A stretch of 64,000 nucleotides of DNA from an uncultured Gemmatimonadales bacterium (lineage in GTDB: Bacteria; Gemmatimonadota; Gemmatimonadetes; Gemmatimonadales; GWC2-71-9). Under the pieces are notes generated by a model. The model did no database searches, was not told where the DNA came from, and worked only from the letters and a program-made list of their open reading frames with translations. The position numbers were made by a program, and so were the translations under genes. Location: NCBI GenBank assembly GCA_963779755.1, contig CAVZZO010000003.1, positions 320,001 to 384,000 on the forward strand. Reading direction: 5' to 3'. Below are positions 43,263 to 60,368 of the stretch, piece after piece (the first letter of the stretch is position 1; every line of letters starts with the position of its first letter).

Positions 43263-44072
43263 GCCACTTTGCTTTGCCGCTCGTGCTGTCCAAGCCCTCG
43301 CTGTCAGGACTATGGAGCCGTCCTCGTTGCGGGGCAACGTTGCTGCCAGCCGTCTCGCGAGGTCTTGCTGTTTCTGGGCGGCGAGTGAAGACAAATAACC
43401 CGGAGCCGGACCAGGCCCGCCAACGAAGGGGGTCCAGTAGTCAGCAAAGTCCTCGAAGCGCGTTGTAACCTCAAGCGCCTCCACCCCAACATGAGAGAAG
43501 CCCGCCTCCCGGAAAGCAGCTTCCAACGCGGAGCGGGAGCAGATCGGGAAGCGCTCCCCCTCATCGTGCTGACGAGCAGTAGGGTCAAGCTCGACTGCGG
43601 CGTCCCAGAACCGGCGGAGGAACTCCATCCCTCCGGCATAGTCCCAGACGCACGCGGCCACCAGGCCGTCTTCGGCTGCCAGTGACCTCATCTCTCGAAG
43701 GGCCGCCGTTGGATCCGGGAGGAAGTTCAAGACGAGAGAGGAAGCCACGACGTCGTAGCCAGCCGCTCTGGTCGGTAATTTGGCCGCAGTGGCAGTAAGG
43801 AACTGAACCCTTTGATCTGGAAGCGCGGCGCGAGCATGCTCGATAAACTGGTCGGACGCGTCCGTCGCCACCACGGAACCGGGGCGCCCCATCTCGAGTA
43901 TCGCCGAGGTCAGAGCCCCCGTGCCGCAGCCGACTTCGAGCCAATGGCGGCTCGGAGGCACGCCCAGCCACACCACGAAGGCGCGGGCCAACTCCCGACT
44001 CCACCGTCCCATGAAACGCTCATACGCACTCGCACTTTCCCAGACATCCCTGGGAGAATCGTGAGGCATCAT
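43257..44072 (-). CDS. Class I SAM-dependent methyltransferase
   Basis: LEVGCGTGAL, YERFMGRWS, VWDYAGGM. Confidence 0.9.
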   Translation of the reverse strand: MMPHDSPRDVWESASAYERFMGRWSRELARAFVVWLGVPPSRHWLEVGCGTGALTSAILEMGRPGSVVATDASDQFIEHARAALPDQRVQFLTATAAKLPTRAAGYDVVASSLVLNFLPDPTAALREMRSLAAEDGLVAACVWDYAGGMEFLRRFWDAAVELDPTARQHDEGERFPICSRSALEAAFREAGFSHVGVEALEVTTRFEDFADYWTPFVGGPGPAPGYLSSLAAQKQQDLARRLAATLPRNEDGSIVLTARAWTARAAKQSGP

Positions 44073-44086
44073 GGTTTGTTGTAGCC

Positions 44087-44140
44087 GCCTAACGAAGTGC
44101 GCGTGAGCTGCGGCGCCGCAGAACGACGCGCTTGTTAGCC
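44087..44140 (-). repeat. Minimal 54-bp attC site
   Basis: GCCTAACGAAGTGCGCGTGAGCTGCGGCGCCGCAGAACGACGCGCTTGTTAGCC: both arms kept, central region absent. Confidence 0.85.
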
Positions 44141-44375
44141 CGCACCGCGAACTGCTTACCACGGCTGCACGACCGAGCGACCGCGGACCTGGAGAGGGAA
44201 TGGCTATCCTCTCGGCTCATACCGCATCGCTACCGCCCCTGAGCAGTACTCCACCCGGCCTACGAGCCTCAAATCGATAACCTCCGACAGCCCCGCAAAC
44301 AAAGTCGGACCATGGCCCACGAGCCGTGAGTGCAACACGAACTTCGTTTATCCGCACCGCTAGTCCGACATCTTG

Positions 44376-44762
44376 TCAGCGAGCTTGCTTGGGCTGGAAC
44401 AATTCAACCGGATTCCCGGCTGGGTCTTCTATCAGGACTTGATCCCCGCCGATCCCCCTGATGCGATCGCTCCGAAACCGCACCCCCGCGGCGCGCAAGC
44501 GCGTGATCTCCGCCGCTAGGTCCTCGACGACCAGCTGAAAGCGGTTCCAGCCTCCCGGCTCTGGACGCCGGCCATCGGCCAAGACCTGACCACCTCCACC
44601 CGCACTATTCGGGGCGCTGAGGAGCAGTCGGAAACCCTCTCGGGAGAGCATTGCGAATGGAGGAGCGGGATGCATGTCAAGCTGGAATCCAAGCTGCTGG
44701 GTGTAAAAGACGATGGCCTCGTCGACATCCTCCACTATGTATCGTACGGTGATATCAGACAT
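44376..44762 (-). CDS. VOC/glyoxalase family protein
   Basis: VRYIVEDVDEAIVFYT, PGGWNRF, DPAGNPVELF. Confidence 0.9.
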   Translation of the reverse strand: MSDITVRYIVEDVDEAIVFYTQQLGFQLDMHPAPPFAMLSREGFRLLLSAPNSAGGGGQVLADGRRPEPGGWNRFQLVVEDLAAEITRLRAAGVRFRSDRIRGIGGDQVLIEDPAGNPVELFQPKQAR

Positions 44763-44789
44763 CGGTTCTTCCAGGACCCGGGTAGTGCG

Positions 44790-44929
44790 GTTTGATGAGG
44801 TGCGTAACAGCGGCGGCGCGATGCCGCGCTCCTCCATCAAACCTACACTTCCGCAGCCCGGCGGCTAGGTGCCCGGGAAATGGACAAAGAGGCCGCGCGA
44901 CCGGCCCGCAGAACGACGCGCTTAGCCAG
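44790..44929 (-). repeat. attC site, degenerate
   Basis: Body conserved (CAGCGGCGGCGCGATGCC...CAGAACGACGCGCTT), cores mutated. Confidence 0.72.
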
Positions 44930-44933
44930 CAGC

Positions 44934-45455
44934 CTATTGACTAGGGACCAGAGACACTGGCGCCCATCGATGCTGGCGCGAACCTAGCAAGCCACCGATC
45001 AGAGCACCGACACCTACGAAAGTGGTTGCGCCGACGACCCACCGGCCATCCCTCTGGACCGGAGAATCCGGGTCATTGAATGCAATTGAACCGAGAACCA
45101 AGACCCCAGCCGCAATTCCGCCGCCGAGCAGTGCCCCTTTCCACGTTCCAGAGCCGCCGCTCACTGCGAGTTGCCGTAGCTTCTCAACCGAGGCCACTCG
45201 AATACTACCGGAATCGGGCCATGGACACTGCGGCTCCCGATACGGGCAGTAAGTCAGCGCAGTGTCACCAGCATTAAGGGGTATCACGAGACGTCCGATC
45301 ACCACGTCGGCATCAGGCGCTCGGAATCTGACCAGGCTGCCAGAAGGAAGGGGAAGGCGCTGAGGAGTCTGGGCGGCCACTATGCTGACGCAGGACAATG
45401 AGATCAAGCCCACTATGCAGGAACGCACCGAAGCCTCCGGAAAAGCCCTGGCCAA
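44934..45455 (-). CDS. Hypothetical exported protein with C-terminal glycine-rich hydrophobic hairpin
   Basis: KGALLGGGIAAG...GALIGGLLG; similar to 57600-58100. Confidence 0.6.
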   Translation of the reverse strand: MARAFPEASVRSCIVGLISLSCVSIVAAQTPQRLPLPSGSLVRFRAPDADVVIGRLVIPLNAGDTALTYCPYREPQCPWPDSGSIRVASVEKLRQLAVSGGSGTWKGALLGGGIAAGVLVLGSIAFNDPDSPVQRDGRWVVGATTFVGVGALIGGLLGSRQHRWAPVSLVPSQ

Positions 45456-45495
45456 ATCTGATTCCGGCCCATCCCCTGAGCGTGACCTCGCTGCG

Positions 45496-45634
45496 GGCTA
45501 ACGAAGTGCGTGTCAGCGGCGGCGCGATGCCCCGCCCTTTCACAATCCTACGCCTCCACAGCGCGACGCTGGATCCACGGGAGATGCCGCGCGCGGCCCC
45601 GGCACCGGCCTGCAGAACGACGCGCATGTTAGGC
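45496..45634 (-). repeat. attC site
   Basis: GGCTAAC...GCGCATGTTAGGC. Confidence 0.9.
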
Positions 45635-45642
45635 GGCGGCGT

Positions 45643-46014
45643 TCATCGAGTGAGGTTGGCAATGTTCTTCAGTACCGCGCCCCACGCGACCCCGAGCAAG
45701 CCGGCTAACATCAGGGCATACAGTTCAAGCATAAGCGCCCAGCGGCCCACTTGACGCGTCTTCCAGGAATACCATGAAATGGCAAATGGAAGGAGCAGGT
45801 ACAGGAAGAACCCCGCATCCATTGCCCTGGTCAGGCCATGTCGCCGAACATTAGGTGCTAGCCACGTTACCACGGCGAGAGGCGGCACTATGGCAAGGAT
45901 GAGCCACATTCCTTGCGACGGCGGAACCCCCAGGAGGGAATAGAGCATGCCGAACAGCAGACACGAGCCGGTGATGATGTACAGCTTGTACCGGGGTGTC
46001 TCGACCTCGTCCAT
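45643..46014 (-). CDS. Hypothetical membrane protein
   Basis: Four TM segments; GGAGG RBS; fills the cassette. Confidence 0.7.
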   Translation of the reverse strand: MDEVETPRYKLYIITGSCLLFGMLYSLLGVPPSQGMWLILAIVPPLAVVTWLAPNVRRHGLTRAMDAGFFLYLLLPFAISWYSWKTRQVGRWALMLELYALMLAGLLGVAWGAVLKNIANLTR

Positions 46015-46036
46015 TGCTCCTCCGTTCAGGCCGTCC

Positions 46037-46170
46037 GCCTAACGAAGTGCGCGTGTGCTGCGGCGCGAACCCAACTTCCTTCACAAACTTACGGTTCCGC
46101 AGCGCGGCCGCTAGATGCCGGGGAGAGGCACTACGCGGCCGCACCGCCGGCCCTGTCAGCTCGACGCGCT
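46037..46170 (-). repeat. attC site interrupted by IS110-family element (remainder at 48787-48796)
   Basis: Ends at CGACGCGCT; missing AGTTAAGC found after the element. Confidence 0.88.
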
Positions 46171-46171
46171 C

Positions 46172-46708
46172 ATGTACGCGGATCCTTTCGGGTTGAGAGG
46201 CTGTCCAGATGTTACGGGAACTGACCCGAATAGTCTAGACGATTGTCCGGAGCGATCCCCAGGTTACTATGCTGCTCGCATTGCCAAGGGTGAAGGTAGC
46301 AGGGTGTTGAATACGGCTTTGGGAGTACTCGCCACGATGGGTCAGGTGCTGGCGGAGCATACGACGGGGAGTGTCACAGTCGGTGAAGAAAGTATCGAGA
46401 CGGATGCCTATGGACTCACGGGTGGACTGGAAAATGGCAATACCAGAGTAGTGCAACGAGTCGGACTTCCCCAGATAGGAGGAAGCCTCGGATTCACTGT
46501 TGGGAATCCGGGTACTGGCGCCGTTGATTTTGGATGGAGCAAGCATCTCGGCATCACGATTCATACCGTGCCCAGTCCTGAAGGCGGCGGAATCTCTGGA
46601 ATCACCTTCAATCTCGGAATCGGCACACCGACCCTTATCGGCATCCAGGACCGGACAGTCGTGTCGCAACCGATTCCCAAATGCCTCGTCTCATGTGCAC
46701 ATGAGTAG
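46172..46708 (+). CDS. Orphan Rhs C-terminal toxin-like tip, type A
   Basis: Starts MYADPFGL (Rhs DPxGL boundary motif), then a unique 170 aa; visibly lower GC. Confidence 0.7.
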   Translation: MYADPFGLRGCPDVTGTDPNSLDDCPERSPGYYAARIAKGEGSRVLNTALGVLATMGQVLAEHTTGSVTVGEESIETDAYGLTGGLENGNTRVVQRVGLPQIGGSLGFTVGNPGTGAVDFGWSKHLGITIHTVPSPEGGGISGITFNLGIGTPTLIGIQDRTVVSQPIPKCLVSCAHE

Positions 46709-46937
46709 TCTACTTGGGTGGTTTCTGGTTGCCGGGGGAATTTTCTACATCGGCGCTGCTGCGTTCGACTGGATTGGGCGAGCAGCAAGTGTGCCCATCG
46801 TGAAGTGGCTTATCCTGCCGCTCCGCATAGGTGAAATACGCTGGGTTGGTGGTGGCAATCGACGATTTGCCGCTACCCTCGGCATCTTTCTTCTAGTCAT
46901 CGGCTTGCTACTCGTCTTGTTCGGTCCTGAACGATAG
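46701..46937 (+). CDS. Putative immunity protein, two TM segments
   Basis: Overlaps tip stop (ATGAGTAG); 78 aa hydrophobic; function inferred from position. Confidence 0.6.
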   Translation: MSSLLGWFLVAGGIFYIGAAAFDWIGRAASVPIVKWLILPLRIGEIRWVGGGNRRFAATLGIFLLVIGLLLVLFGPER

Positions 46938-46946
46938 GCTGCCGAA

Positions 46947-47435
46947 GGAGCCGGCCTCGTCTAGCCTGGGGCGCTCGCAGTGCCTCCGGGTTGTCGGGCC
47001 TGAGCTCCGAGGGGTCGGGTCTAGTTAGGAGCCTCGCGGGCTGCCGCGCGTGGCGGACCTCGGCCGGCGGAAAAGGAAAGTGGTGGGGGCCCCACGAGTT
47101 CAGCGGAACCCATCGGCTCCAGACCTGCCGCGAGCCGGCTCCCTCGTCGGGCGTCATGCGCCCACGGGAGCAGACGGGGTCACCCCACCGGCTCCAAGGT
47201 GCTACCCGGTCCTTCGATTGTCAAAGAGCGCCGCGTTCCGCGTGCCGGCGGGATCCTGGCACCACCCTCATAGGTCGTTGAGGCTCGGGGCCTCCCACAT
47301 CTTCATGGATGCTCTCCGATCCGCGGCCGGGCGGCCAGCAACACTCTGTGCGCGGAGCTCACCGAAGACGCCGGCGGCTCAAGGCAAATAGTGGGCGGCC
47401 CGGCCGCGCACGCGCGGCTCCCCACCGATCTCCGG
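46947..47435 (-). ncRNA. Putative bridge/seek RNA region with one donor and two target loops
   Basis: Non-coding, conserved in three copies, downstream of the recombinase; guide segments match the end junction and attC. Confidence 0.8.
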
Positions 47436-48704
47436 CTATTCGCTCACCACCGGCTCTGCCCGATGCCGCTGCGCCTCCCAGCGCTCCCGCTCGAACGGCT
47501 GGCCCGAGTGGAGTACGGCCAGGAGGAGCGGCACCAGCTTGCGCGCCACCGCACAGACCGCCTTGGTCCGGAGCCCGCCATTGCGGGCCAGCAGGGCCTG
47601 ATAGTACGCGCGGTAGAGCCCCCGGGGCTGGCACCAGCGGCCGCCCAGGAGGAACAGCTGGCGGCGGAGCAGCGGCCGGCCCCGTTTGGACTGTTTGCGC
47701 CGCCCCTGCACGCTGCCGCTGGAACGCTCGACCAGATTCATGCCTGCGAGTTTCAGCACCTGGCGGGGATGAGTGAAGCGCTCCGGAGTGCCCAGCTCGG
47801 CCACAATCGTAGCCGCACAGGTGGCACTCACCTCGGGAATGGTGGTCAGCGCCTTGGCGGCGGGACACTGCTCCACCAAGGCGGCGATCTGCTGGTTCAA
47901 CACCGCGAGCTGCTCCCGCAGGAGGTCCCAGCGGGCCAGGAGCTGCTGGATCTCCAACCGCCGCTCGGGAGCGGCGTCGGCCAGGGCGACACTGGTGCGG
48001 GCGGACTCGCGCAGGACGTGGAGCCGCTCCGGGCCCACGTGGCCCCGCGAGACGGACCGCGCCAGGCGCGTCACCGCGGCCGGGGCGGCCGCCAGGAAGT
48101 CCTGCGGCAGCGGCCAACGCGCCAGCAGGGCGCGCGGGGTGGGCTTGCGCACCTGCGAGAAGTGCGTCAGGAACTCGGGCCAGGCCAGGTCGAGCAGGCT
48201 CTGGAGACGGTTCTTGAACCGGGTTTCCTCGACGGTTAACCGGTGCCGGTGGGTGGTGAGCAGCCGCAGCTCGAGATACGGGGGCTGCAGCGCCGGATAT
48301 CCCACGAAGATCCCCAGGCTCACCAGCTTGCAGATCTCGGCGGCATCCTTCGCGTCCGTCTTGTTGGGGCTGTTATCCTCCAGTTCCTTGGCCCGCTTGG
48401 TGTGGGCCGGCAGGATATTGACCAGCGCATAGCCGCGCGCCCGCAGGCACTCGGCAAACGTGAAGCCGTGATGGCCGGCGAACTCCAGCCCCACCAGCAT
48501 CTGTCCGGGCCGGATGCCGGGAAACCAGGCCGTCAACTGCGCCGCGGCGGCCTCGAAGCCCGCGCGGCTCACCGGCACCCGGACCGGCTTCGTGCGGCGC
48601 CCATCGGGGCCCTGAGCAACCAGCACGTGGACCCGCTTCGCGGTATCCACGCCTACGTGAACGGGGAACGTGCGGGTATAGGCAGACTTTTCGTCGGGGG
48701 TCAT
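47436..48704 (-). CDS. IS110 family DEDD recombinase/transposase
   Basis: VGVDTAK, GLEFAG, KTDAKDA and C-terminal RSSGS; alternative start 48731. Confidence 0.95.
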   Translation of the reverse strand: MTPDEKSAYTRTFPVHVGVDTAKRVHVLVAQGPDGRRTKPVRVPVSRAGFEAAAAQLTAWFPGIRPGQMLVGLEFAGHHGFTFAECLRARGYALVNILPAHTKRAKELEDNSPNKTDAKDAAEICKLVSLGIFVGYPALQPPYLELRLLTTHRHRLTVEETRFKNRLQSLLDLAWPEFLTHFSQVRKPTPRALLARWPLPQDFLAAAPAAVTRLARSVSRGHVGPERLHVLRESARTSVALADAAPERRLEIQQLLARWDLLREQLAVLNQQIAALVEQCPAAKALTTIPEVSATCAATIVAELGTPERFTHPRQVLKLAGMNLVERSSGSVQGRRKQSKRGRPLLRRQLFLLGGRWCQPRGLYRAYYQALLARNGGLRTKAVCAVARKLVPLLLAVLHSGQPFERERWEAQRHRAEPVVSE

Positions 48705-48796
48705 GGCGCGGCTCCGGGTGGAGGGAATCACAGGAGTCGCGGAAGGAGCTACGGGCCGCGCAGCGGCGTCAAGCGGGTATAGATGTCTAGTTAAGC

Positions 48797-49277
48797 GACT
48801 ATGCTCGGGTTGCGTACTTCACGGGGAGGTCAAGACTCCGCTCTCTTCTGCGGGGAGGCTCGACTCGAGGCCGGGGTGCTCCTGCGGCGACTCCGGCGGG
48901 GCGAGAAGCTCGGGCTCCCGCACTCCCGACCGATACCGGGACTCGGCCGGCGGTGTCAAGAGTTGCGGATTCCCGACCAAGGACGCCACCTGGCGGATCA
49001 TCTATCGGCTCGATCGAGACGCAATCGTGATTGTGGAGGTCTTTGCGAAGAGCCAAGCGACTCCACAACAGGTCCTGGCCACGTGCGCGCGGCGGCCGAA
49101 CCACTAGGATGCGGTGAGCCGCGGGGAGGATTGATCATGAACAAACGGAAGCAGAAGCGGCTGGAAGCTGCCGGCTGGCGGGTGGGAACGACCACCGACT
49201 TCCTCGACCTCTCCCCTGAGGAGGCCGCCTTGGTGGAGCTGCGCCTGAAGCTGAGCGCGGCCCTCCGTCGAATCTGA
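48797..49277 (+). pseudogene. Decayed RelE/Gp49-like toxin plus truncated HTH antitoxin
   Basis: LHGEVKTP, ARLEAGVLLRRL..LGLPHSRP, WRIIYRLDRDAIVIVEVFAK in shifting frames; antitoxin MNKRKQKRLEAAGW stops before the HTH. Confidence 0.8.
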
Positions 49278-49287
49278 GTGGGTTGCT

Positions 49288-49427
49288 GGCTAACGAAGTG
49301 CGCGTGTGCTGCGGCGCGAACCTTCAGGTCTTCACAAACCTACGCGTCCTTATCCGTGCCACTAGGAGCCCGAGAGACTAGAGGAGACCGGCGCGACCGG
49401 CCCCGCAGAACGAAGCGCTAGTGAGGT
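49288..49427 (-). repeat. attC site with one core mismatch
   Basis: GGCTAAC...GCGCTAGTGAGGT. Confidence 0.85.
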
Positions 49428-49446
49428 GGCCCACTGCGGCCGCTCA

Positions 49447-49629
49447 CTACACTTCGTACGAGATCGGAAGGGCATGCAAGCACTCGGGGCAGAAATAGAT
49501 GCGGCGGGCGACGACAACCGAGCGGGCGCGCTTGTAGAAGATTCTGTCGAGCGAGGCATCACACGAGGGACATAGCGGGACCAGATCGCCCCTCTCCTCA
49601 TACGTGATTTTGGAATAGCGCTCCATCAT
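49447..49629 (-). CDS. Small zinc-ribbon protein
   Basis: CPSC...CPEC, 60 aa. Confidence 0.6.
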   Translation of the reverse strand: MMERYSKITYEERGDLVPLCPSCDASLDRIFYKRARSVVVARRIYFCPECLHALPISYEV

Positions 49630-49736
49630 GCCGCCCCCATCGTTAGAGCATGAAGTCAAGGAAGCCGAGGGATGGAACCGGGGCTCGAGCCCGACAAAGC
49701 AGGATGCCCTCCCTCCGGGGTGAGCCATTCCGCGCC

Positions 49737-49875
49737 ACCTAACGAAGTGCACGTGTGCTGCCGCGCGAGCCTTCAGGTCTTCACAAACCTACGCGTCCTT
49801 AGCCGCACCGCCAGGGCCGGAGCGTGCGCCCGCGGCCCTCGCGACCGGCCCGCCTGCTGCAAACACTGGTTAGAC
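49737..49875 (-). repeat. attC site
   Basis: ACCTAAC...CACTGGTTAGAC. Confidence 0.9.
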
Positions 49876-49889
49876 CGCAGCGTCCGCCA

Positions 49890-49918
49890 TTGACAGATAG
49901 ACGCCAGCGGCGTATATT
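49890..49918 (+). promoter_or_regulatory. Sigma70 promoter of TA cassette with palindromic operator in the spacer
   Basis: TTGACA-N17-TATATT; ACGCC-AGC-GGCGT. Confidence 0.8.
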
Positions 49919-49923
49919 GACGC

Positions 49924-50235
49924 ACGGAACTGATCGAAACAGCGGTCTTTACCAAACAAGCGACCGCCGAATGGTCGGCGGAGGCGTACCGGGCTTTCCA
50001 GCTCTACCTGGTGCTCAACCCGGAGGCCGGGGCCGTCATTCCCGGCGCCGGCGGTCTACGAAAGGTCCGCTGGCGACTGCCAGGCCGGGGCAAGCGCGGT
50101 GGTGCCCGGGTGATCTACTACTACAAGAATGCCGCGGGCCGGATCTACCTCTTGTTCCTGTATCCGAAGCACGTGCGGAGTGATCTGAGCCCCGGGGAGC
50201 TGCGGACGCTCCGGGCTCTCGTGGAGTCGGAGTGA
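49924..50235 (+). CDS. RelE/HigB-family toxin with ACG at the expected start
   Basis: ELIETAVF...NPEAGAVIPGAGGLRKVRW..GKRGGARVIYY. Confidence 0.8.
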   Translation, partial: TELIETAVFTKQATAEWSAEAYRAFQLYLVLNPEAGAVIPGAGGLRKVRWRLPGRGKRGGARVIYYYKNAAGRIYLLFLYPKHVRSDLSPGELRTLRALVESE

Positions 50236-50256
50236 TTCATTGACCGAGAGGATGAC

Positions 50257-50602
50257 CATGCGCAAGGACCTGTTCGACCAACTGCTGGCCAGCATCACGC
50301 AGATGAAGGAGATCGAGGCGGGCCGCCGGAAGCCCTCCCGGGTAACCCGCGGGGAGGACTTGCTGGCCAGCGAGCCCCCCGACGTCGCGGCCCTCCGTGC
50401 CCACTTTGGCTTGAGCCAGAGCAAGTTCGCGGCGCTACTTGGCATCAGCGTGGATACTCTGCAGAACTGGGAGCAGCATCGCCGCACGCCCGAGGGGCCT
50501 GCTCGGGTGCTTCTTCGTGTCGCCGCGACTCATCCGGAGGCGCTGCTTTCGATCTCCCAGAACCCCGCCCCCCGCCGTCGCGCCCGCAAAATAGCCGTCT
50601 AG
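50257..50602 (+). CDS. HTH (HigA-like) antitoxin
   Basis: GLSQSKFAALLGISVDTLQNWEQHRRTPEGPA; start approximate. Confidence 0.85.
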
Positions 50603-50637
50603 CCGCCTCGACCGACGCCACGGAGCGAGGTGCTGCG

Positions 50638-50779
50638 GTCTAACGAAGTGCGCGTGTGTTGCAGCGCGATCCCCACCTCCTTCACAAACCTACGTTTCCG
50701 CAGCGCGGCCGCTAGATCGACGGGAAATGCACCAACCGCCGGCAGCCCCCGGCCTGCAGAACGATGCTGCTTGTTAGGA
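50638..50779 (-). repeat. attC site
   Basis: GTCTAAC...GCTTGTTAGGA. Confidence 0.9.
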
Positions 50780-50806
50780 GGCGCCCGGCGTATTACATTG
50801 CATGAC

Positions 50807-51028
50807 ATGAAAAGCTCAGCCCTGACCATCCGCCTCGATCCCGAATTGGAGCGAGAGCTCGCCCGGGTGGCGAAACGCTCCGGCCGTTCCCGCAGCCAGG
50901 TCGTCCGCGACGCCTTACGCCGTCAACTGGCGATCGCTCAATTCCAGGATCTCCGCCGCCGGATCATGCCGCTCGCTGAGGCTGCCGGCTACCTGACCGA
51001 TGAGGATGTCTTTCGCGACGTCTCGTGA
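50807..51028 (+). CDS. CopG/ribbon-helix-helix antitoxin
   Basis: LTIRLDPEL...SRSQVVRDALRR. Confidence 0.85.
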   Translation: MKSSALTIRLDPELERELARVAKRSGRSRSQVVRDALRRQLAIAQFQDLRRRIMPLAEAAGYLTDEDVFRDVS

Positions 51029-51426
51029 GAGTCTTCTTCGATACCAATGTGCTGGTGAGCGCATTGGCTACTCGGGGGCTATGCGCTGACCTCTTCCAAG
51101 CTACTCTGGCGGACCATGATCTTCTCATTGGCGAAACGGTCATCGCCGAACTCACGGACGTTCTCAAACGTAAATTCCACGCCAGTGCCGCGAACCTCGC
51201 TGAAATCGAAGCGCTCCTGCGTCGGCATGGCGAAGTCATTCACAGTGAGCGGCTACTGCAGGTGAGGATCCGTGATCCCAAAGATCGAGCGATTCTCGCG
51301 GAAGCCGTTGCTGGTCGGGCAGATATCCTGGTCACAGGGGACCGTGACCTTCTCTCCATCACCGCCCGCGCGCCGATACCAATTCGCTCGCCCAGGGAGT
51401 TTTGGGAGGCCCTCCGGTCGAAATAG
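51025..51426 (+). CDS. PIN-domain toxin
   Basis: FFDTNVLVSA, RDPKD, LVTGDRDLL; GTGA overlap. Confidence 0.9.
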   Translation: MRVFFDTNVLVSALATRGLCADLFQATLADHDLLIGETVIAELTDVLKRKFHASAANLAEIEALLRRHGEVIHSERLLQVRIRDPKDRAILAEAVAGRADILVTGDRDLLSITARAPIPIRSPREFWEALRSK

Positions 51427-51443
51427 CTCCGATACTTAGCGCC

Positions 51444-51583
51444 TCCTAACGAACTGCGCGTGTGCTGCAGCGCGATCCCGACTTCCTTCACAAACCTACG
51501 TTTCCGCAGCGCCGCCGCTAGATGCCCGGGACATGCTCCGATGCCGGCAGCACCGGCCCGCCCATTGGAAACGCTAGTTAAAC
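51444..51583 (-). repeat. attC site
   Basis: TCCTAAC...GAAACGCTAGTTAAAC. Confidence 0.9.
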
Positions 51584-51967
51584 CGCCATCGGGCGGATGC
51601 TCGCCCGCACCCACTCCAAAAGCTGCTCCCGGCTCAGGCGGCCAGCCGCAACTCCCAGAATGACCTCTTCCGCCTTGTCCACCGAAGAAACCAGCTCCTG
51701 GCCATTGAGAACCAAGAAGACTTCCATAGCTGCGTGGCCGATCCGCTTGTTCCCGTCCACAAAGGGATGATTCTGGATCAGGCTAAACGCCAGGGCGGTC
51801 GCCTTGGCCGCGAGGTCCGGGTACAGGTCCTCTCCACCAAAGGTCATCCGTGGCTGGGCGAGCGCGGCCTCAAGCGCCCCGAGGTCCCGGATGCCAGAAG
51901 CGCCGCCGCTCTGATGGAGCAGACGGCGCTGAAGCTCAATCGCTTCGCCGAGTGTGAGGTACCGCAC
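51578..51967 (-). CDS. doc: Doc/Fic family toxin
   Basis: HPFVDGNKRIG; stop within attC core. Confidence 0.92.
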   Translation of the reverse strand: MRYLTLGEAIELQRRLLHQSGGASGIRDLGALEAALAQPRMTFGGEDLYPDLAAKATALAFSLIQNHPFVDGNKRIGHAAMEVFLVLNGQELVSSVDKAEEVILGVAAGRLSREQLLEWVRASIRPMAV

Positions 51968-51968
51968 C

Positions 51969-52163
51969 CTAGGCGAGCCGGCGATACAGTTCGCTGTTCT
52001 TGCTCAGAACACGACGCGCAGCTTCCTCGAAGTCCTTCTCGGGGTTCGCGATGAAGTCACGCACCGCCGCCGCGGCCAGATCCGCCGGGGGAACGCGCAA
52101 CTCCGCGGCGGCCTCCCGGAGGCGCCGCTCGGCATCGTCAGGCAGTTGGATCGAAAGGGTCAT
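51969..52163 (-). CDS. Antitoxin partner of Doc
   Basis: 64 aa ending KNSELYRRLA, directly upstream of doc. Confidence 0.82.
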   Translation of the reverse strand: MTLSIQLPDDAERRLREAAAELRVPPADLAAAAVRDFIANPEKDFEEAARRVLSKNSELYRRLA

Positions 52164-52216
52164 AGAGCCTCCGCTCCAATTCTAGCCCATCCGGACGCTC
52201 CGGGCCAGTTCTGGCG

Positions 52217-52357
52217 GTTTAACGAAGTGCGCGTGTGCTGCGGCGCGATGCCCAGCACCCTCACAAACCTACGTTTCCACCGCGCGACCGCGAGACCACT
52301 GGGAAATGCCCCAAGCGGCCGCAGCGCCGGCCCGCCTGCTGCAAACACTTGTTAGAG
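52217..52357 (-). repeat. attC site
   Basis: GTTTAAC...CACTTGTTAGAG. Confidence 0.9.
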
Positions 52358-52427
52358 GGCTTTGCCTTGCTCGTACAACGATATAGCGATAGATTACGCA
52401 GTCGTTGTACAGGCCTAGGAGGACAGA

Positions 52428-52634
52428 GTGTCTATCGTCAAAGTGTCGCCCAAGTACCAGGTGGTCATCCCGCAAAAGATCCGGGAAGCCCTCGGGATTG
52501 CTCCGGGCCAGAAGGTCCAGGCTATCCAGTACGGCGACCGGATCGAGTTCATCCCCGTGAAGCGGTTGCGGCAAATGCGTGGCTTTCTTGGGGGCATCGA
52601 CACTGAGGTGCCCCGCGAAGCGGACCGGGTGTGA
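52428..52634 (+). CDS. AbrB/MazE/SpoVT family antitoxin
   Basis: VSPKYQVVIPQKIREALGIAPG. Confidence 0.9.
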   Translation: MSIVKVSPKYQVVIPQKIREALGIAPGQKVQAIQYGDRIEFIPVKRLRQMRGFLGGIDTEVPREADRV

Positions 52635-53005
52635 ACGTCGTCGACTCGTCGGCCTGGCTCGAGTACTTCGCCGATGGCCCGAACGCAGCTTTCTTCGCTC
52701 CAGCCATTGAGCAGACGGCCAAGCTTCTCATCCCCACCGTGTGCCTCTATGAAGTCTTCAAACGGGTTCTCCTGCAGCGGGGGGAGGGCCCTGCCCTCCA
52801 AGCCATTGCCCTCATGCAGCAAGGTACCCTGGTGGACTTGGACGGCCCGATTGCCCTCACGGCGGCCCGCCTCAGCTCCGATCTCAAGCTGCCGATGGCT
52901 GACAGCATTGTTCTCGCAAGCGCTCGGCACCATGCAGCAACGGTCTGGACGCAGGATGTGGATTTTGAGAGCCTCCCCGACGGTCGATTTGCCCGGAAGA
53001 AGTAG
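52631..53005 (+). CDS. vapC: VapC PIN-domain toxin
   Basis: VVDSSAWLEYF, LPMADS, WTQDVDF. Confidence 0.9.
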   Translation: MNVVDSSAWLEYFADGPNAAFFAPAIEQTAKLLIPTVCLYEVFKRVLLQRGEGPALQAIALMQQGTLVDLDGPIALTAARLSSDLKLPMADSIVLASARHHAATVWTQDVDFESLPDGRFARKK

Positions 53006-53015
53006 GGGCAAAGCT

Positions 53016-53156
53016 GGCTAACGAAGTGCGTTTCAGCGGCGGCGCGATGCTCCGCGCCTCTCACAATCCTACGCTTCCACAGCGCGACCGCTAGATCCCC
53101 GGGGATGCGCCAGCGGCCTGCAGCCTCGGCGCGCCCGCTGGAAACGCTAGTTAGGC
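53016..53156 (-). repeat. attC site
   Basis: GGCTAAC...GAAACGCTAGTTAGGC. Confidence 0.9.
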
Positions 53157-53157
53157 C

Positions 53158-53451
53158 TCATTCCCGACGCAGCCAACGGCGGGGGTGCCGGCGCCCATGG
53201 ATGATCCCGAGGACAGAGATCACCGACGGAAATACCCGGTAGTAGACCGCATAGGGGAACCGATGCAAAAGGGCCCGCCGAACGTTCGGGCGGACCTCGG
53301 GGAAGGCTTCAGGATGCTGACGAATGGCAAGGAACTCGTCGTCCAGGGCTTCGACGAACTGTCGCGCCCGCTCTAGTGACTTACTGGCATACCAGATAGT
53401 GGCCTCGGCGAGCTCGGTGCTGGCCTGTGACCGAAGCCTAAGAGGGAGCAC
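53158..53451 (-). CDS. ParE/RelE family toxin
   Basis: RRALLHRFPYAVYY, HGRRHPRRW. Confidence 0.88.
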   Translation of the reverse strand: MLPLRLRSQASTELAEATIWYASKSLERARQFVEALDDEFLAIRQHPEAFPEVRPNVRRALLHRFPYAVYYRVFPSVISVLGIIHGRRHPRRWLRRE

Positions 53452-53669
53452 TACTTGAGGTGACGCTTAAGGTCCGCCTTGACCGCGTCCCAATCGCGCC
53501 CACCCTCGGGGTCCTTCTCGGCCTGCCCCGACCGACGGTCCAGCTCGGCGGCGAGTTCCGGGGACATCGGGGCCGCCTCCTCGGCCTCGAGACTGTCCCA
53601 GATAGCCTCAAGGAGGTCGAGGCGCTCCTGAGGAGTCAGCCGGGAGATATCGACTTTGGGGTGTGCCAT
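53451..53669 (-). CDS. Addiction-module antitoxin
   Basis: LTPQERLDLLEAIWDSL...ELDRR...WDAVK. Confidence 0.88.
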   Translation of the reverse strand: MAHPKVDISRLTPQERLDLLEAIWDSLEAEEAAPMSPELAAELDRRSGQAEKDPEGGRDWDAVKADLKRHLK

Positions 53670-53718
53670 GCTTCAATCTCGGTCCGGGGCCCCAGGTAGG
53701 CAAGATCAGGGCAATGAG

Positions 53719-53859
53719 GCCTAACGAAGTGCGTGTAAGCGGCGGCGCGATGCCCCGCCCTCTCACAATCCTACGCTTCCACAGCGCGACCGCTAAATGC
53801 CCGGGAGATGCAACGACTCGCCGCAGCTCCGGCCCGCTCGCTGGAAACGCTAGTTAAGC
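53719..53859 (-). repeat. attC site
   Basis: GCCTAAC...GAAACGCTAGTTAAGC. Confidence 0.9.
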
Positions 53860-53860
53860 G

Positions 53861-54047
53861 TCAGGGCGCGGGGATCTCAAGATCCCGGCAGATCTTGCGC
53901 GCCAGATGCTCATTTAGCTCGCGATGCCGAGGCACCGTCGTGGCCTTGCGGGCCGTCCGGTTGACATAAACCGAATGGGCGCCACCCTCCCGAAAGGAGT
54001 TGGCACCCATTGTCCTCAAGGTGCTTGATCAGATCGCGACGCTTCAC
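53861..54047 (-). pseudogene. hicA: HicA toxin with +1 frameshift
   Basis: MKRRDLIKHLEDNGCQLL then REGGAHSVY...VPRHREL in another frame; span is 187 nt. Confidence 0.78.
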
Positions 54048-54265
54048 GCCGAGATACGCAGAGGCTCGCGGATTACCGCCTGGCCGGCGAGGGACTCCTC
54101 AGCGAGGGTGCGGTTGGCCTCCAGGACAAGGTGAATTGCCTCCTGGAGATTCTGCCGGGCCTCGTCGAGGGTTGCACCCTGGGTATTCGCGCCCGGCAGC
54201 TCCTCTACGAAACCGATATACCCCTCGGGAACCTCTTGGAAAACGGCCGTAAGCTGGAGCTGCAT
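54044..54265 (-). CDS. hicB: HicB family antitoxin
   Basis: ELPGANTQGATLDEARQNLQEA; AGGAG RBS. Confidence 0.9.
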   Translation of the reverse strand: MQLQLTAVFQEVPEGYIGFVEELPGANTQGATLDEARQNLQEAIHLVLEANRTLAEESLAGQAVIREPLRISA

Positions 54266-54313
54266 GGGGGCTCCTCCTTGGAGCCTGAAATATAGCGGCG
54301 ACCGGTCCCTGAC

Positions 54314-54446
54314 GCTTAACGAAGTGCGCGTGTGCTGCGGCGCGAACCCGCGCTCCTTCACAAACCTACGTTTCCACAGCGCGACAGCTAGATCCCCGGG
54401 AGATGCGCCGCCAGCCCGCGCGACCGGCCCGTCAGAACGACGCGCT
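54314..54446 (-). repeat. attC site interrupted by IS110-family element (remainder at 57039-57048)
   Basis: Ends CAGAACGACGCGCT; AGTTAGGC resumes after the element. Confidence 0.9.
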
Positions 54447-54447
54447 C

Positions 54448-54903
54448 ATGTACGCGGATCCTTTCGGGCTGCTTGCCCAGGATTGTTGTATCGAAACGGG
54501 GGATTGGCGAAAGGATAACCTGCTTCACCCTGCTGTCTACAGCGGCAAGAGAGACAACCCGATGCTGGGAGTAGCTGTGGGTCTCCTGGCCGTTGCAGGT
54601 GGGGCCGAACTGGCTGCTCCCAGGTTATTTGCCGCGGCCACCGCTGCTCTTCCTAAGGTACCGTTTGAGAAATTCCAGGACTGGGGACGAAATGTTGTCC
54701 AATGGGGCCGTGGGGCAGCGGGGGCAATTCAGCGGGTTTCTGAAGTGACGGCCGAGCAGGCCTCTAAATTGGATCCACAGAAAGTGAAGATGGCTCGCGA
54801 CTTCTACCAGAAAGCTGTTGATGCTGGCCGAGGGGGAGCCGCCGCACCCGAACGAGTAAAGCTGATGGAACGCATTTTAGACCTGCAGCAGAGAACCCAT
54901 TAG
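54448..54903 (+). CDS. Orphan Rhs C-terminal toxin-like tip, type B
   Basis: MYADPFGL start, hydrophobic linker, C-domain WGRGAAGAIQR..FYQ..RVKLMERI reminiscent of DUF4951 (from memory, unverified). Confidence 0.72.
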   Translation: MYADPFGLLAQDCCIETGDWRKDNLLHPAVYSGKRDNPMLGVAVGLLAVAGGAELAAPRLFAAATAALPKVPFEKFQDWGRNVVQWGRGAAGAIQRVSEVTAEQASKLDPQKVKMARDFYQKAVDAGRGGAAAPERVKLMERILDLQQRTH

Positions 54904-54949
54904 TGGCTCGGTCCGGTCTATTCGAGCATTGCAACACGGAGGAAGAGCC

Positions 54950-55198
54950 ATGCTGGAAGCAGCGGTCACACTTCGGCTTACGAATAGATGCGAAACTGCG
55001 CGGAAGCTCGTGATTGAGCCATGGACCACCGAGTTTCGACTGCAACCTGGGCACACTTACGACTTGGTGATATCAGGGGACCTTGGCCTCCCCTTAGAGG
55101 TTGAGTTCGAGGACGACGAACTAACCGTATACACTTTCGATTCCGCCAATGCCTCCTTCAAGATTTCCGAAGGCGGGGCTGAACTTAAACCACTGTAG
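54950..55198 (+). CDS. Putative immunity protein
   Basis: GGAGG RBS, 82 aa acidic protein with IEPW motif, directly after the tip. Confidence 0.65.
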   Translation: MLEAAVTLRLTNRCETARKLVIEPWTTEFRLQPGHTYDLVISGDLGLPLEVEFEDDELTVYTFDSANASFKISEGGAELKPL

Positions 55199-55687
55199 GA
55201 GCCCGGCCCTGTCTAGCCTGGGGCGCTCGGGGCGCCTCCGGGTTGTCGGGCCTGAACTCCGAGGGGTCGGGTCTAGTTAGGAGCCTCGCGGGCTGCCGCG
55301 CGTGGCGGACCTCGGCCGGCGGAAAAGGAAAGTGGTGGGGGCCCCACGAGTTCAGCGGAACCCATCGGCTCCAGACCTGCCGCGAGCCGGCTCCCTCGTC
55401 GGGCGTCATGCGCCCACGGGAGCAGACGGGGTCACCCCACCGGCTCCAAGGTGCTACCCGGTCCTTCGATTGTCAAAGAGCGCCGCGTTCCGCGTGCCGG
55501 CGGGATCCTGGCACCACCCTCATAGGTCGTTGAGGCTCGGGGCCTCCCACATCTTCATGGATGCTCTCCGATCCGCGGCCGGGCGGCCAGCCATACTCTG
55601 TGCGCGGAACTCACCGAAGACGCCGGCGGCTCAAGGCAAATAGAGGGCGGCCCGGCCGCGCACGCGCGGCTCCCCCCCGGTCTCCGA
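55198..55687 (-). ncRNA. Putative bridge/seek RNA region, copy 2
   Basis: Near-identical to 46947-47435; guide segments unchanged. Confidence 0.8.
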
Positions 55688-56956
55688 CTATTCGATCACC
55701 ACCGGCTCTGCGTGATGCCGCTGGGTCTCCCAGCGCTCCCGGTCGAACGGCTGGCCCGACTGGAGCACGGCCAGGAGGAGCGGCACCAGCTTGCGGGCCA
55801 CCGCGCAGACCGCCTTGGTCCGGAGCCCCCCGTTACGGGCGAGCAGGGCCTGATAGTACGCGCGGTAGAGCCCCCGGGGCTGGCACCAGCGGCCGCCCAG
55901 GAGGAACAGCTGGCGGCGGAGCAGCGGCCGGCCCCGTTTGGACTGTTTGCGCCGCCCCTGCACGCTGCCGCTGGAACGCTCGACCAGATTCATGCCTGCG
56001 AGTTTCAGCACCTGGCGGGGATGAGTGAAGCGCTCCGGAGTGCCCAGCTCGGCCACAATCGTAGCCGCACAGGTGGCACTCACCTCGGGAATGGTGGTCA
56101 GCGCCTTGGCGGCGGGACACTGCTCCACCAAGGCGGCGATCTGCTGGTTCAACACCGCGAGCTGCTCCCGCAGGAGGTCCCAGCGGGCCAGGAGCTGCTG
56201 GATCTCCAACCGCCGCTCGGGAGCGGCGTCGGCCAGGGCGACACTGGTGCGGGCGGACTCGCGCAGGACGTGGAGCCGCTCCGGGCCCACGTGGCCCCGC
56301 GAGACGGACCGCGCCAGGCGCGTCACCGCGGCCGGGGCGGCCGCCAGGAAGTCCTGCGGCAGCGGCCAACGCGCCAGCAGGGCGCGCGGGGTGGGCTTGC
56401 GCACCTGCGAGAAGTGCGTCAGGAACTCGGGCCAGGCCAGGTCGAGCAGGCTCTGGAGACGGTTCTTGAACCGGGTTTCCTCGACGGTTAACCGGTGCCG
56501 GTGGGTGGTGAGCAGCCGCAGCTCGAGATACGGGGGCTGCAGCGCCGGATACCCCACGAAGATCCCCAGGCTCACCAGCTTGCAGATCTCGGCGGCATCC
56601 TTCGCGTCCGTCTTGTTGGGGCTGTTATCCTCCAGTTCCTTGGCCCGCTTGGTGTGGGCCGGCAGGATATTGACCAGCGCATAGCCGCGCGCCCGCAGGC
56701 ACTCGGCAAACGTGAAGCCGTGATGGCCGGCGAACTCCAGCCCCACCAGCATCTGTCCGGGCCGGACGCCGGGAAACCAGGCCGTCAACTGCGCCGCGGC
56801 GGCCTCGAAGCCTGCGCGGCTCACCGGCACTCGGACCGGCTTCGTCCGCCGGCCATCGGGGCCCTGGGCGACCAGGACGTGAACGCGCTTGGCGGTGTCC
56901 ACACCCACGTGGACGGGAAACCAGCGGGCGTAGGCGGACTTCTCATCGGGGGTCAT
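55688..56956 (-). CDS. IS110 family DEDD recombinase/transposase
   Basis: Near-identical to copy 1; intact; alternative start 56983. Confidence 0.95.
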   Translation of the reverse strand: MTPDEKSAYARWFPVHVGVDTAKRVHVLVAQGPDGRRTKPVRVPVSRAGFEAAAAQLTAWFPGVRPGQMLVGLEFAGHHGFTFAECLRARGYALVNILPAHTKRAKELEDNSPNKTDAKDAAEICKLVSLGIFVGYPALQPPYLELRLLTTHRHRLTVEETRFKNRLQSLLDLAWPEFLTHFSQVRKPTPRALLARWPLPQDFLAAAPAAVTRLARSVSRGHVGPERLHVLRESARTSVALADAAPERRLEIQQLLARWDLLREQLAVLNQQIAALVEQCPAAKALTTIPEVSATCAATIVAELGTPERFTHPRQVLKLAGMNLVERSSGSVQGRRKQSKRGRPLLRRQLFLLGGRWCQPRGLYRAYYQALLARNGGLRTKAVCAVARKLVPLLLAVLQSGQPFDRERWETQRHHAEPVVIE

Positions 56957-57065
56957 AGCGCGGCTCCGGGTGGAAGGAATCACAGGAGTCGCGGAAGGAG
57001 CTACGGGCCGCGCCGCGGCGTCAAGCGGGTATAGATGTCTAGTTAGGCTTCACTGCGCATTCAAC

Positions 57066-57446
57066 TTATCCGAAGCGTTCTCTGAAGCCTTCCTGTGCCT
57101 CGCTGATAATAGGCAAGAGCTCGTGCTCGGCGACTTGAACAGTTTCGATACCAAGCCGCTCCGCCTCACTGGCTACGGACTGAGCTACCAGATCCTTCGG
57201 AAGAAGCAGGGTCTTTGGCCAGCGCCTCTTATGATCATGCGCCTCCTTCAGCAGACGCTTTGCCTCGAGCTGACTGGGCTCCGCCTGATCTACTGGAACG
57301 GGCGCGGAGCTGAGAATGAAGCAGCTCGCCGCGTCCATCAGTGCAAGAAAATGGAAATCCCCGTCCTGCTCTGTGCGGATGGGCTCCTTGTTCAGTTTGA
57401 ACCAGATCCAGGCTTGGTTGATTTCGAACTGATTTGGGTGGAGCAC
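57066..57446 (-). CDS. Hypothetical cassette protein
   Basis: GTG start after AGAGG; fills the cassette. Confidence 0.7.
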   Translation of the reverse strand: MLHPNQFEINQAWIWFKLNKEPIRTEQDGDFHFLALMDAASCFILSSAPVPVDQAEPSQLEAKRLLKEAHDHKRRWPKTLLLPKDLVAQSVASEAERLGIETVQVAEHELLPIISEAQEGFRERFG

Positions 57447-57464
57447 TGGTGAACCTCTGGTGAA

Positions 57465-57605
57465 GCCTAACGAAGTGCGTTTCAGCGGCGGCGCGATGCC
57501 CCGCTCCTCCACAATCCTACGCTTCCACAGCGCGACCGCTAGATCCGGGGGCAATGCACCAACAGGCAGCAGCACCGGCCCGCCCGCTGGAAACGCTAGT
57601 TAGGG
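57465..57605 (-). repeat. attC site
   Basis: GCCTAAC...GAAACGCTAGTTAGGG. Confidence 0.9.
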
Positions 57606-58100
57606 TCGCAGGCGCTCGACACCCAAGTGAACCGGTTTCCACGAGTCGAAACCGGTACCGATCAGCGCGCCGAGAGCACCCCACGTCAGGCCAGTACCGA
57701 TTATGGCTCCGGCTTCCCCCTGACCTGCAGGTCGCTGCTCCGCTGTGCCGACCACATAGACCAAGGCCAGGCCGGCGCCCACGAGCGCACCGATCACCGC
57801 TCCTCGCCGTGCTTGGTTGCCTTGGCGTACTTCGACGAGGCTCAACCCGGCCGCGGGCCGGCGAATGGTGTCCGCGGCCCCCCTCGCAGTGCACGCGGGA
57901 CTCGGGTAGCTGCAATACACGATAGTATCCGTCTGGGCACCGAGTGGCGACAGCAAACGCCCACGCGCTGGAGGAGCGAGGGACCACGTCAGACGCACCA
58001 CACTCCCAACGGGGAGAACGGCTAGGGAGTCCCTCTTCTGGGCACCGGCAATCGCTGGCCACAGAAGGAGCAGGGCGACTGCAAAGAAGGCATGCCGCAT
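57600..58100 (-). CDS. Hypothetical exported protein with C-terminal glycine-rich hydrophobic hairpin
   Basis: Signal peptide; RGAVIGALVGAG...GALGALIG; stop in attC core. Confidence 0.65.
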   Translation of the reverse strand: MRHAFFAVALLLLWPAIAGAQKRDSLAVLPVGSVVRLTWSLAPPARGRLLSPLGAQTDTIVYCSYPSPACTARGAADTIRRPAAGLSLVEVRQGNQARRGAVIGALVGAGLALVYVVGTAEQRPAGQGEAGAIIGTGLTWGALGALIGTGFDSWKPVHLGVERLRP

Positions 58101-58178
58101 GTGCCGGGCCCGTGGAAGGAGACCTTCTGCCACTACTTGTTCTCCGTCCTCCAGCCGTGACCTAGTCGACTTGCTGCG

Positions 58179-58318
58179 CCCTAACGAAGTGCGTTTCAGC
58201 GGCGGCGCGATGCCCCGCTCCCTCACAATCCTACGCTTCCACAGCGCGGCCGCTAGATGTTTGGAGTTGCGCCAGGCGGCAGCAGCCCCGGCCCGTCCGC
58301 TGGAAACGCTAGTTACGC
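58179..58318 (-). repeat. attC site
   Basis: CCCTAAC...GAAACGCTAGTTACGC. Confidence 0.9.
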
Positions 58319-58324
58319 AGCAGC

Positions 58325-58537
58325 CTAAAGGTCGTTCGGAGTGAGCCCGGTATGCTTCGAGATTCGGGCGAGCATTCTGGGACCGATCTCCTCTTGGTCA
58401 TGGAAGGCAAAGACGAAGTCAGGCCAGCCTGCCCGACTCAACGTCCGGTGGGAGCCGGATTCGCGCTTGACAGACCAGCCGATCCGGAGAAGAGCCGCCA
58501 AGACCCGTCGGGCCTTGGCAGCTCCCCAGCTACTCAT
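58325..58537 (-). CDS. hicA: HicA family toxin
   Basis: LLRIGWSVKRESGSH, FAFHDQEEIG. Confidence 0.88.
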   Translation of the reverse strand: MSSWGAAKARRVLAALLRIGWSVKRESGSHRTLSRAGWPDFVFAFHDQEEIGPRMLARISKHTGLTPNDL

Positions 58538-58937: not shown

Positions 58938-58943
58938 AGCACC

Positions 58944-60357: not shown

Positions 60358-60368
60358 GCTTGGCAGCA

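Follow-up and report, generated by a model that had tools for sequence, protein, structure and literature searches.

Three copies of one genetic unit lie within a 64,000-nucleotide (nt) stretch of DNA from an uncultured Gemmatimonadales bacterium (assembly GCA_963779755.1, contig CAVZZO010000003.1, positions 320,001 to 384,000; this whole stretch is referred to below as the window). Each copy combines a gene that the original prediction called a recombinase with two small genes on the opposite strand, one resembling the C-terminal toxin tip of an Rhs protein and the other its presumed immunity partner, and the first two copies hold unrelated tip/partner pairs. The locus raises the question of which part of this unit moves, where its ends lie, and how one backbone comes to carry different toxin tips. 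Our reading, to which we assign a probability of about 80%, is that this 2.6 kb unit is mobile and belongs to the IS110 family of insertion sequences (IS), that the Rhs-type tip and presumed immunity gene are its internal cargo, and that its relatives insert at the junction between core and tip of rhs genes.

To define the cargo, copies 1 and 2 were compared base by base. Window positions 46162-46192 and 54438-54468 contain the same 31 bases, CGACGCGCTCATGTACGCGGATCCTTTCGGG, terminating in GATCCTTTCGGG, the codons for DPFG. Copy 1 then has the leucine codon TTG (46193-46195), where copy 2 has CTG (54469-54471), and beyond this codon there is no real similarity over 752 bases of copy 1 and 727 bases of copy 2 (46196-46947 versus 54472-55198; 428 of 818 columns were identical in a forced global alignment). 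Homology restarts at AGGAGCC, found in copy 1 at position 46947, 9 nt past the stop codon of the partner gene (46935-46937), and in copy 2 at position 55197, where it overlaps the stop codon (55196-55198). The original prediction had described just this pattern, from the shared upstream sequence and the TTG/CTG difference to complete divergence after DPFGL and realignment within 0-9 nt of the stop codon, and all of it was confirmed. Its observation that the cargo is lower in guanine plus cytosine (GC) was also borne out, with values of 55.3% for the first cargo (A) and 55.8% for the second (B), 70.1-70.4% for the remainder of the element and 66.4% for the window, and the tip sizes and partner types were as it had given them (Table 1). 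Copies 2 and 3 do share cargo B as claimed, but the tip of copy 3 is frameshifted. A family search with the cargo A partner gave only a weak match to DUF4395, below the cut-off.

Upstream of the 31 identical bases, the similarity of copies 1 and 2 drops to about 80%, and this stretch is an integron attC repeat. The upstream sequence is shared between the copies, as had been noted, but it consists of the remainder of an interrupted attC site followed by the right end of the element; the integron array had gone unrecognised.

The gene opposite the cargo encodes an IS110-family RNA-guided transposase, which corrects the identity, though not the presence, of the recombinase noted earlier. It matched PF01548 (1.8e-24), PF02371 (1.5e-16) and the profile NF033542, 'IS110 family RNA-guided transposase' (195 bits against a cut-off of 140 bits), and both hallmark domains of the family are present, the N-terminal DEDD (RuvC-like) domain and the C-terminal Transposase_20 domain. 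A fourth, decayed copy with cargo B was found on another contig (C1:684207-686790), bringing the total for the genome to four copies with two cargo types. On the minus strand, all four have the same order: left end AGACATC, transposase, approximately 490 nt of non-coding DNA, the antisense partner and tip genes, and right end CCCGAAAGGATCCGCGTACATG. The left end begins AGACATCTAT. The right end reads as x-Y/F-x-D-P-F-G in antisense and is placed 10 nt upstream of the Asp codon in DPFGL, the motif with which every Rhs core closes; in this genome it consists of the 22 bases encoding MYADPFG. The non-coding stretch downstream of the transposase (~490 nt) is far longer than that upstream (~60 nt), a trait of the IS1111 subgroup. 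We class the element as an IS110-family member with a 3′ non-coding region.

The surroundings of the four copies define the extent of the insert. From position 42046 onwards, the window contains a repeat of about 135 nt with CTAAC...GTTAG ends every 340-900 nt. Allowing up to two mismatches, the attC motif TAACGAAGTGCG has 21 occurrences in the window, none of them before 42046, and 58 on C3:362046-404263. An integron integrase gene, intI, was identified on the minus strand at C3:405150-406091 (TIGR02249, 448 bits; cut-off, 265 bits); a second integron is present on contig C1, and two integron integrases in the genome score above the cut-off. The array reads along the minus strand with a co-oriented integrase, to judge from the cassette open reading frames (ORFs), most of which are minus-strand, and from the position of the integrase at the end with the higher coordinates. 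In the two chromosomal integrons, the four copies interrupt four different attC sites, whose remainders and adjoining cassettes all differ. In each case the junctions have the form (Y)YTAAC + N, then AGACATC...element...GGATCCGCGTACATG, then AGCGCGTC and the remaining attC up to ...GTTAG, so that the insertion lies between the inverse core CTAAC and GCGCGT, at one position and in one orientation, without target duplication. Intact attC sites of the TAAC-NN-GCGC class (CTAAC-NN-GCGCGT) have a spacer of exactly 2 nt in all 25 cases, which is AA in 22, and the flanks of the insertions rebuild a normal attC. Since all 25 intact sites have just these 2 nt between TAAC and GCGC, the whole 2585-2618 nt, cargo included, constitutes one insert. 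Cargo B was found together with the backbone in three different attC sites.

Two further observations were made. On contig C1, a solitary left-end fragment of 146 nt (C1:673507-673652; 99% identical) includes the first ~30 transposase codons and adjoins a GCCTAAC box, the remainder of the element being missing. Copy 1 interrupts the attC of a cassette (window 48801-49277) with two plus-strand ORFs, antisense to the array, which by eye resemble a RelE/HigB-type toxin and an XRE-type antitoxin; no Pfam match was obtained in either frame.

Table 1. Positions of the element copies, their genes and their surroundings in the window
Feature	Position in window	Strand	Description
Element copy 1	46171..48788	-	2618 nt, intact, cargo A; ends defined within 1-2 nt
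Copy 1 ends	left ...AGACATCTATACCC at 48788; right ...GGATCCGCGTACATG at 46171	-	attC junctions
Cargo A tip	46172..46708	+	178 amino acids (aa), counted from MYADPFGL
Cargo A partner	46701..46937	+	78 aa, two hydrophobic segments; presumed immunity protein, from its position
3′ non-coding region, copy 1	46947..47435	-	two repeated guide-like modules at ~46947-47001 and ~47005-47060
Transposase, copy 1	47436..48731	-	431 aa, IS110-family RNA-guided DEDD transposase
Element copy 2	54447..57040	-	2594 nt, intact, cargo B
Cargo B tip	54448..54903	+	151 aa; DUF4951, 32.7 bits against a 27.3-bit cut-off
Cargo B partner	54950..55198	+	82 aa, acidic (15 D+E, 7 K+R); presumed immunity protein
Module M2, copy 2	55197..55253	-	reaches exactly to the cargo boundary; includes ACAACCCGG and AGGCTAGAC
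Module M1, copy 2	55257..55312	-	ACGCGC, reverse complement of attC right flank GCGCGT; also CCTAACTAGAC
Transposase, copy 2	55688..56983	-	431 aa, 98% identical to copy 1 transposase
Element copy 3	60922..63506	-	2585 nt, cargo B; tip frameshifted, transposase with frameshifts and stops
Integron cassette array (part)	42046..64000	-	chromosomal; integrase beyond the window at higher coordinates
attC remainder, larger part (L''...R'), at copy 1	46040..46170	-	R'' box GCTTAAC across the element at 48790-48796
attC remainder, larger part, at copy 2	54316..54446	-	R'' box GCCTAAC at 57042-57048

Related elements were collected by scanning genomes and metagenomes with a 20-base left-end motif. This yielded 28 further loci, one in a public genome record (a Gemmatimonadetes metagenome-assembled genome) and 27 on metagenome contigs. 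In a separate search with the transposase, 11 of 401 sampled genomes of the phylum, this one included, had a match at E<=1e-40; the transposase-based search for related loci in genome contigs gave no confirmed relative. Among sequencing runs, two from soil metagenomes matched 22% and 8% of the sequence words, as contigs, with no RNA run among those listed, and on one soil metagenome contig the cargo sequence of copy 1 was found again behind position 54468.

The left flanks of the 28 loci fell into three classes: 19 of rhs type, three of attC type (...CCTAACN) and six of a third type. In the rhs type, the element is preceded by the antisense of x-Y/F-x-D-P-F-G-L followed by a tip, and the distance from GGRTC to the first base of the element is exactly 10 nt in all 11 distinct flanks. 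Beyond the right end of rhs-located copies lies the antisense of real core codons, for example ...NLYQFNGNNPV. Five distinct rhs-located elements have a right flank of 1 kb or more. In each of them the reading frame that includes the cargo tip runs through the whole flank without a stop (339-653 codons), and the same five match the Rhs core profile TIGR03696 (Rhs_assc_core; 58.7-63.5 bits against a cut-off of 32.5 bits) in a region that ends at DPFGL; within the window, only three codons and DPFGL precede the tip. A sixth element (L063) is fused to a core fragment of 47 codons, and so represents an orphan module. With both junctions at -10, the reading frame is kept when the two flanks are joined. 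Read from these flanks, the insertion cuts the rhs gene between ...NPV and xYxDPFGL, placing the cargo tip behind the core and the former tip behind the left end. The original prediction had proposed a swap at the DPxGL codons. There is indeed a recombination boundary just upstream of DPFGL, but it is the terminus of the element and, in relatives, its insertion point in rhs genes, and not a place where cargo is exchanged in situ.

Nested insertions and a second family were also seen. One of the relatives, G122, contains the array Rhs core-tip1-imm1-IS-tip2-IS-tip3-imm3, and also has an attC-located copy of the element family. The Rhs genes and orphans of the present genome all end in ...NPVxFxDPFGL. 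A second family, with a transposase about 40% identical to the first, has an equal layout, and at least one DPFGL junction abuts the element in six of the seven members examined. One member lies in this genome at the edge of an orphan Rhs array (C3:1486126-1488884); it encodes a 422 aa IS110-family transposase, 40% identical, its left end abuts the antisense of AFRDPFGL and a tip, and approximately 480 nt past the transposase stop codon come a partner gene and a tip preceded by ...GGNPVAYTDPFGL. The third flank type, ...GTT, element, GAGGGCGTTTTTGC, was seen in L042/L054, L055/L068 and perhaps L065 and L067. It is neither rhs nor an attC of the kind found in the window, and when tested as a local repeat it proved not to be one.

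The cargo proved diverse. Nineteen complete elements contained 12 different cargos with tips of 10 families (E<1e-4) and of 127-173 aa, one read-through excepted. Both the exchangeability of the tip/partner pair on its backbone and the expected population-level library of tips were supported, and the contrary case named with the prediction, only two cargos or ragged boundaries, did not arise. The proposed sharpness of the boundaries was upheld for the inner boundary in this genome, which is tight, but not elsewhere, since the distance from the partner stop codon to the conserved GTCTAG ranges from 12 to about 95 nt in other elements. A search for the same tips on Rhs genes, suggested with the prediction, found relatives of both tips behind Rhs core ends. 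Tip B is 59% identical to the C-terminus of a protein (P0001) that carries an Rhs core end. Tip A has eight relatives among 1.84 billion representatives; two of them (P0004, P0008) follow Rhs core ends and two (P0003, P0005) begin at the M-x-F-x-DP position, and over its N-terminal 56 aa it shares 48% identity with an orphan Rhs tip at C3:1494468. Longer proteins related to tip A were also searched for, without a hit. Few known domains occur in the tips: tip B has DUF4951, and the cargo tip that is fused to an Rhs core at L058:2-1414 has a serum-amyloid-A-like domain (PF00277, 3.9e-26).

We then considered how two target types might be recognised. IS110 and IS1111 elements use an RNA from their non-coding region with short matches to both target strands, and in the IS1111-type guide RNA the top-strand match lies 5′ of the bottom-strand match, according to the available sections of PMC11187229. 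In the present family, the distal non-coding region consists of two to four repeated modules with the arrangement AGGYYCG, guide 1, short hairpin, guide 2, (C/T)TAGAC, RRCC. In module M1, CCTAACTAGAC equals the left junction (attC CCTAACT plus element AGAC) at 11 of 11 bases, a match reached by 0.05% of shuffles, and ACGCGC is located 22 nt upstream of it. A compensatory difference accompanies the latter, this genome having ACGCGC with attC GCGCGT and G122 having ATGCGC with attC GCGCAT. In module M2, ACAACCCGG and AGGCTAGAC resemble the N-P-V codons and the ...TAGGCT/AGAC left junction of rhs-located relatives (flanks of L041, L058 and G122). To judge from these matches, M1 and M2 together suggest dual targeting of attC and rhs junctions. 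Four other elements (L046, L048, L063 and L068) have a module whose guide 1 is an exact 8-9 nt complement of their own right flank, which corresponds to D-P-V core codons in the first three and to the third flank type in L068 (9 nt). Guide matches were assessed as the longest exact match relative to shuffles in a 310 nt region, searches with 7-mers and 11-mers over the non-coding region and cargo being too noisy; on this measure, 7 of 11 elements had a match at p<=0.055. We had also expected the rhs-located copies of G122 to have, at M1, a guide matching their rhs left flank. This expectation failed, M1 there being of attC type. A search of Rfam with window positions 46100-48850 gave no matches at E<=1.

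The backbones of copies 1 and 2 are not uniformly alike. Outside the cargo (46947-48798 versus 55197-57050), 60 of 1854 columns differ, and the differences are clustered in three patches of 7, 21 and 29, with none at all across stretches of 300 and 675 nt. The patch of seven is the 75 nt adjoining the cargo, the diverged patches differ by 8-10%, and one of them covers module M2. The pattern suggests that two diverged lineages of the element underwent gene conversion within one genome. Given this alternation of identical and 8-10% diverged patches, the two cargo types probably arrived on diverged backbones that were homogenised later. The 'same chassis' of the original prediction is a conserved backbone, but a mosaic one.

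Could the tip/partner pairs be ordinary integron cassettes, exchanged by IntI at attC sites, with the IS a later and unrelated insertion? The region is a cassette array with an intI gene, and IS1111-type elements are known to target attC sites (available sections of PMC11187229). A 38% identical relative of the cargo B partner also exists as a separate cassette of the same array, in cassette orientation (C3:392765-392983, minus strand), and may be an orphan immunity gene. Each pair, however, sits together with the IS inside one interrupted attC (R'' to L''), between CTAAC and GCGCGT, and is not bounded by attC sites, in which crossover takes place in the GTT of the core site; the pairs run antisense to the cassette direction, and an identical layout occurs in rhs genes with no attC nearby at 19 of the 28 loci. 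We do not class the tip pair as an integron cassette, and the exchange of such pairs by IntI is scarcely credible. It might instead be supposed that the mobile part is a plain IS of 1.85 kb whose target is by chance next to orphan Rhs tips. IS110 elements usually measure 1.0-1.6 kb, the homology between copies 1 and 2 ends at the stop codon of the partner gene, and in rhs loci the left end invariably adjoins a DPFGL junction, all of which would fit. In all four attC insertions, however, the attC restarts only past the first codons of the tip and not past the non-coding region, cargo B accompanies the backbone in its three separate attC sites, and the non-coding region and the partner gene are not separated by a core fragment, so that we regard a plain IS as very unlikely.

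A different objection is that the tips are displaced in the classical way, by homologous recombination at the end of the Rhs core, with the transposase a passive passenger in rhs loci. Such displacement is the accepted model for effectors of Rhs type and of type VI secretion systems (T6SS), and the rhs region of this genome does contain orphan tips with approximately 30 core codons. The shared sequence at the junction nevertheless amounts to only ~10 nt plus the DPFG codons, and the constancy of the -10 position among the 11 distinct flanks is unlike homologous recombination, which also could not have placed the unit in attC sites. We consider this account extremely improbable.

If this reading is correct, the element would move as a circle guided by RNA from its non-coding region, by analogy with other IS110 and IS1111 elements, for which this has been shown experimentally. 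Landing in an rhs gene would exchange the expressed toxin and supply the matching immunity gene, serial landings would produce tip-IS-tip arrays, and attC sites would offer a second, neutral landing place. Two candidate routes may be envisaged for the loading of cargo. The right end may be redefined at an upstream rhs gene junction, given the flexible boundaries reported for IS110 elements, or modular mini-circles may form at internal CTAGAC copies of the left junction, as reported for ISPpu9. In its fullest form, the proposal is that this IS110 lineage serves as a vehicle for Rhs tips, re-arming an rhs gene in frame and with immunity where it lands, that its several guide modules allow either rhs or attC to be used, and that attC sites are parking places for a shared library of tips. 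We put this forward tentatively, at somewhat less than even odds.

Several observations weigh against these interpretations. None of the copies in this genome is in an rhs gene, tip replacement being seen only in other genomes and metagenomes, where the right flanks of the rhs-located loci extend to at most 1.95 kb, short of full-length Rhs genes. No circle joints were seen in the contigs of the two soil metagenome runs. Subterminal inverted repeats, which in IS1111 elements are 11-13 bp long with extensions of 7 and 3 nt, were sought by comparing the reverse-complemented left end with the distal 1.3 kb of both intact copies, and none was found at either of the candidate right ends; for this reason the element was not filed in the IS1111 subgroup. 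In domain searches, tip A had no family match and tip B matched only DUF4951, with no known toxin domain in either. The mosaic ascribed to gene conversion means that 'identical chassis, different cargo' overstates the recency of any swap. The guide model has its own difficulties. The 6-nt right match of the window element is not significant alone, 4 of the 11 elements (L041, L054, L058 and G122_rhsA) had no match better than shuffles, and three elements with attC-type guides (M1) sit in rhs genes, which the model leaves unexplained. The predicted RNA fold of two modules was no better than that of shuffles (z -0.35), and folding an alignment of 15 modules produced an outer stem of 4 bp and nothing more.

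Elsewhere in the window, positions 33228-35150 contain two blocks of 93-96 nt tandem repeats in a coding region, with a recurring ...AAWALGQIED... unit that resembles HEAT/PBS-lyase-type repeats. Positions 28946-29273 contain three tandem copies of a unit of about 125 nt, two of which are 98% identical over 122 nt.

The acquisition of polymorphic-toxin tips has so far been explained mainly by homologous recombination with orphan modules. In E. coli and Salmonella, silent tip/immunity modules pile up downstream of the rhs core gene as orphan tip arrays, and a new tip, lower in GC than the core, replaces the expressed one at the conserved core end. Displacement at these loci, and that of T6SS effectors in V. 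cholerae, is thought to use homologous recombination over core fragments. The window element differs in that a site-specific recombinase of its own accompanies the module, and the break falls at a single fixed nucleotide position. If true, a tip/immunity module with its own site-specific and probably RNA-guided recombinase would provide a concrete, testable route for the spread of toxin repertoires between strains. It would also be a natural IS110 element that makes an in-frame protein fusion on insertion, and integron cassette arrays and rhs loci, both of which generate diversity, would be linked through a single element family. To judge from the repeated guide modules, more than one target may be encoded by natural bridge or seek RNAs.

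Targeting of attC, cargo on IS110 elements and Rhs tip displacement have each been described on their own, and we found no paper joining all three; among the papers listed for Rhs or polymorphic toxins together with IS110, bridge RNA, seekRNA or integrons, judged mostly by titles and the openings of abstracts, there was no description of this arrangement. Expanded IS110 elements exceed 2 kb, carry adaptive genes and have boundaries made flexible by partial ('half-match') guide recognition, according to the available text of two preprints (bioRxiv 10.64898/2026.08.14.744561; 10.64898/2026.08.31.748434). The window element is likewise an IS110 element of more than 2 kb with cargo. The cargo described in the available part of the former report (10.64898/2026.08.14.744561) is mainly drug and metal resistance; its main text lacks the words Rhs, toxin, integron and attC, and that part describes no in-frame fusion to a host gene. 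ISPpu9, another IS110-family element with a downstream module, forms circles of the transposase alone, of transposase plus module, or of the module alone; its module is a small RNA gene and not protein cargo, as far as the available sections of PMC12288879 go, and it offers a precedent for internal end-like sites. Further counterparts are the IS1111-attC elements ISPst6, ISKpn4 and ISPa25, which are guided by seekRNA and share with the window element the DEDD transposase, the long downstream non-coding region and orientation-specific insertion at one end of attC (available sections of PMC11187229). From this group the window element is set apart by the lack of detectable subterminal inverted repeats, by two to four repeated guide-like modules instead of one, by its two protein cargo genes, by a right end that corresponds to the rhs junction, and by relatives that reside in rhs genes.

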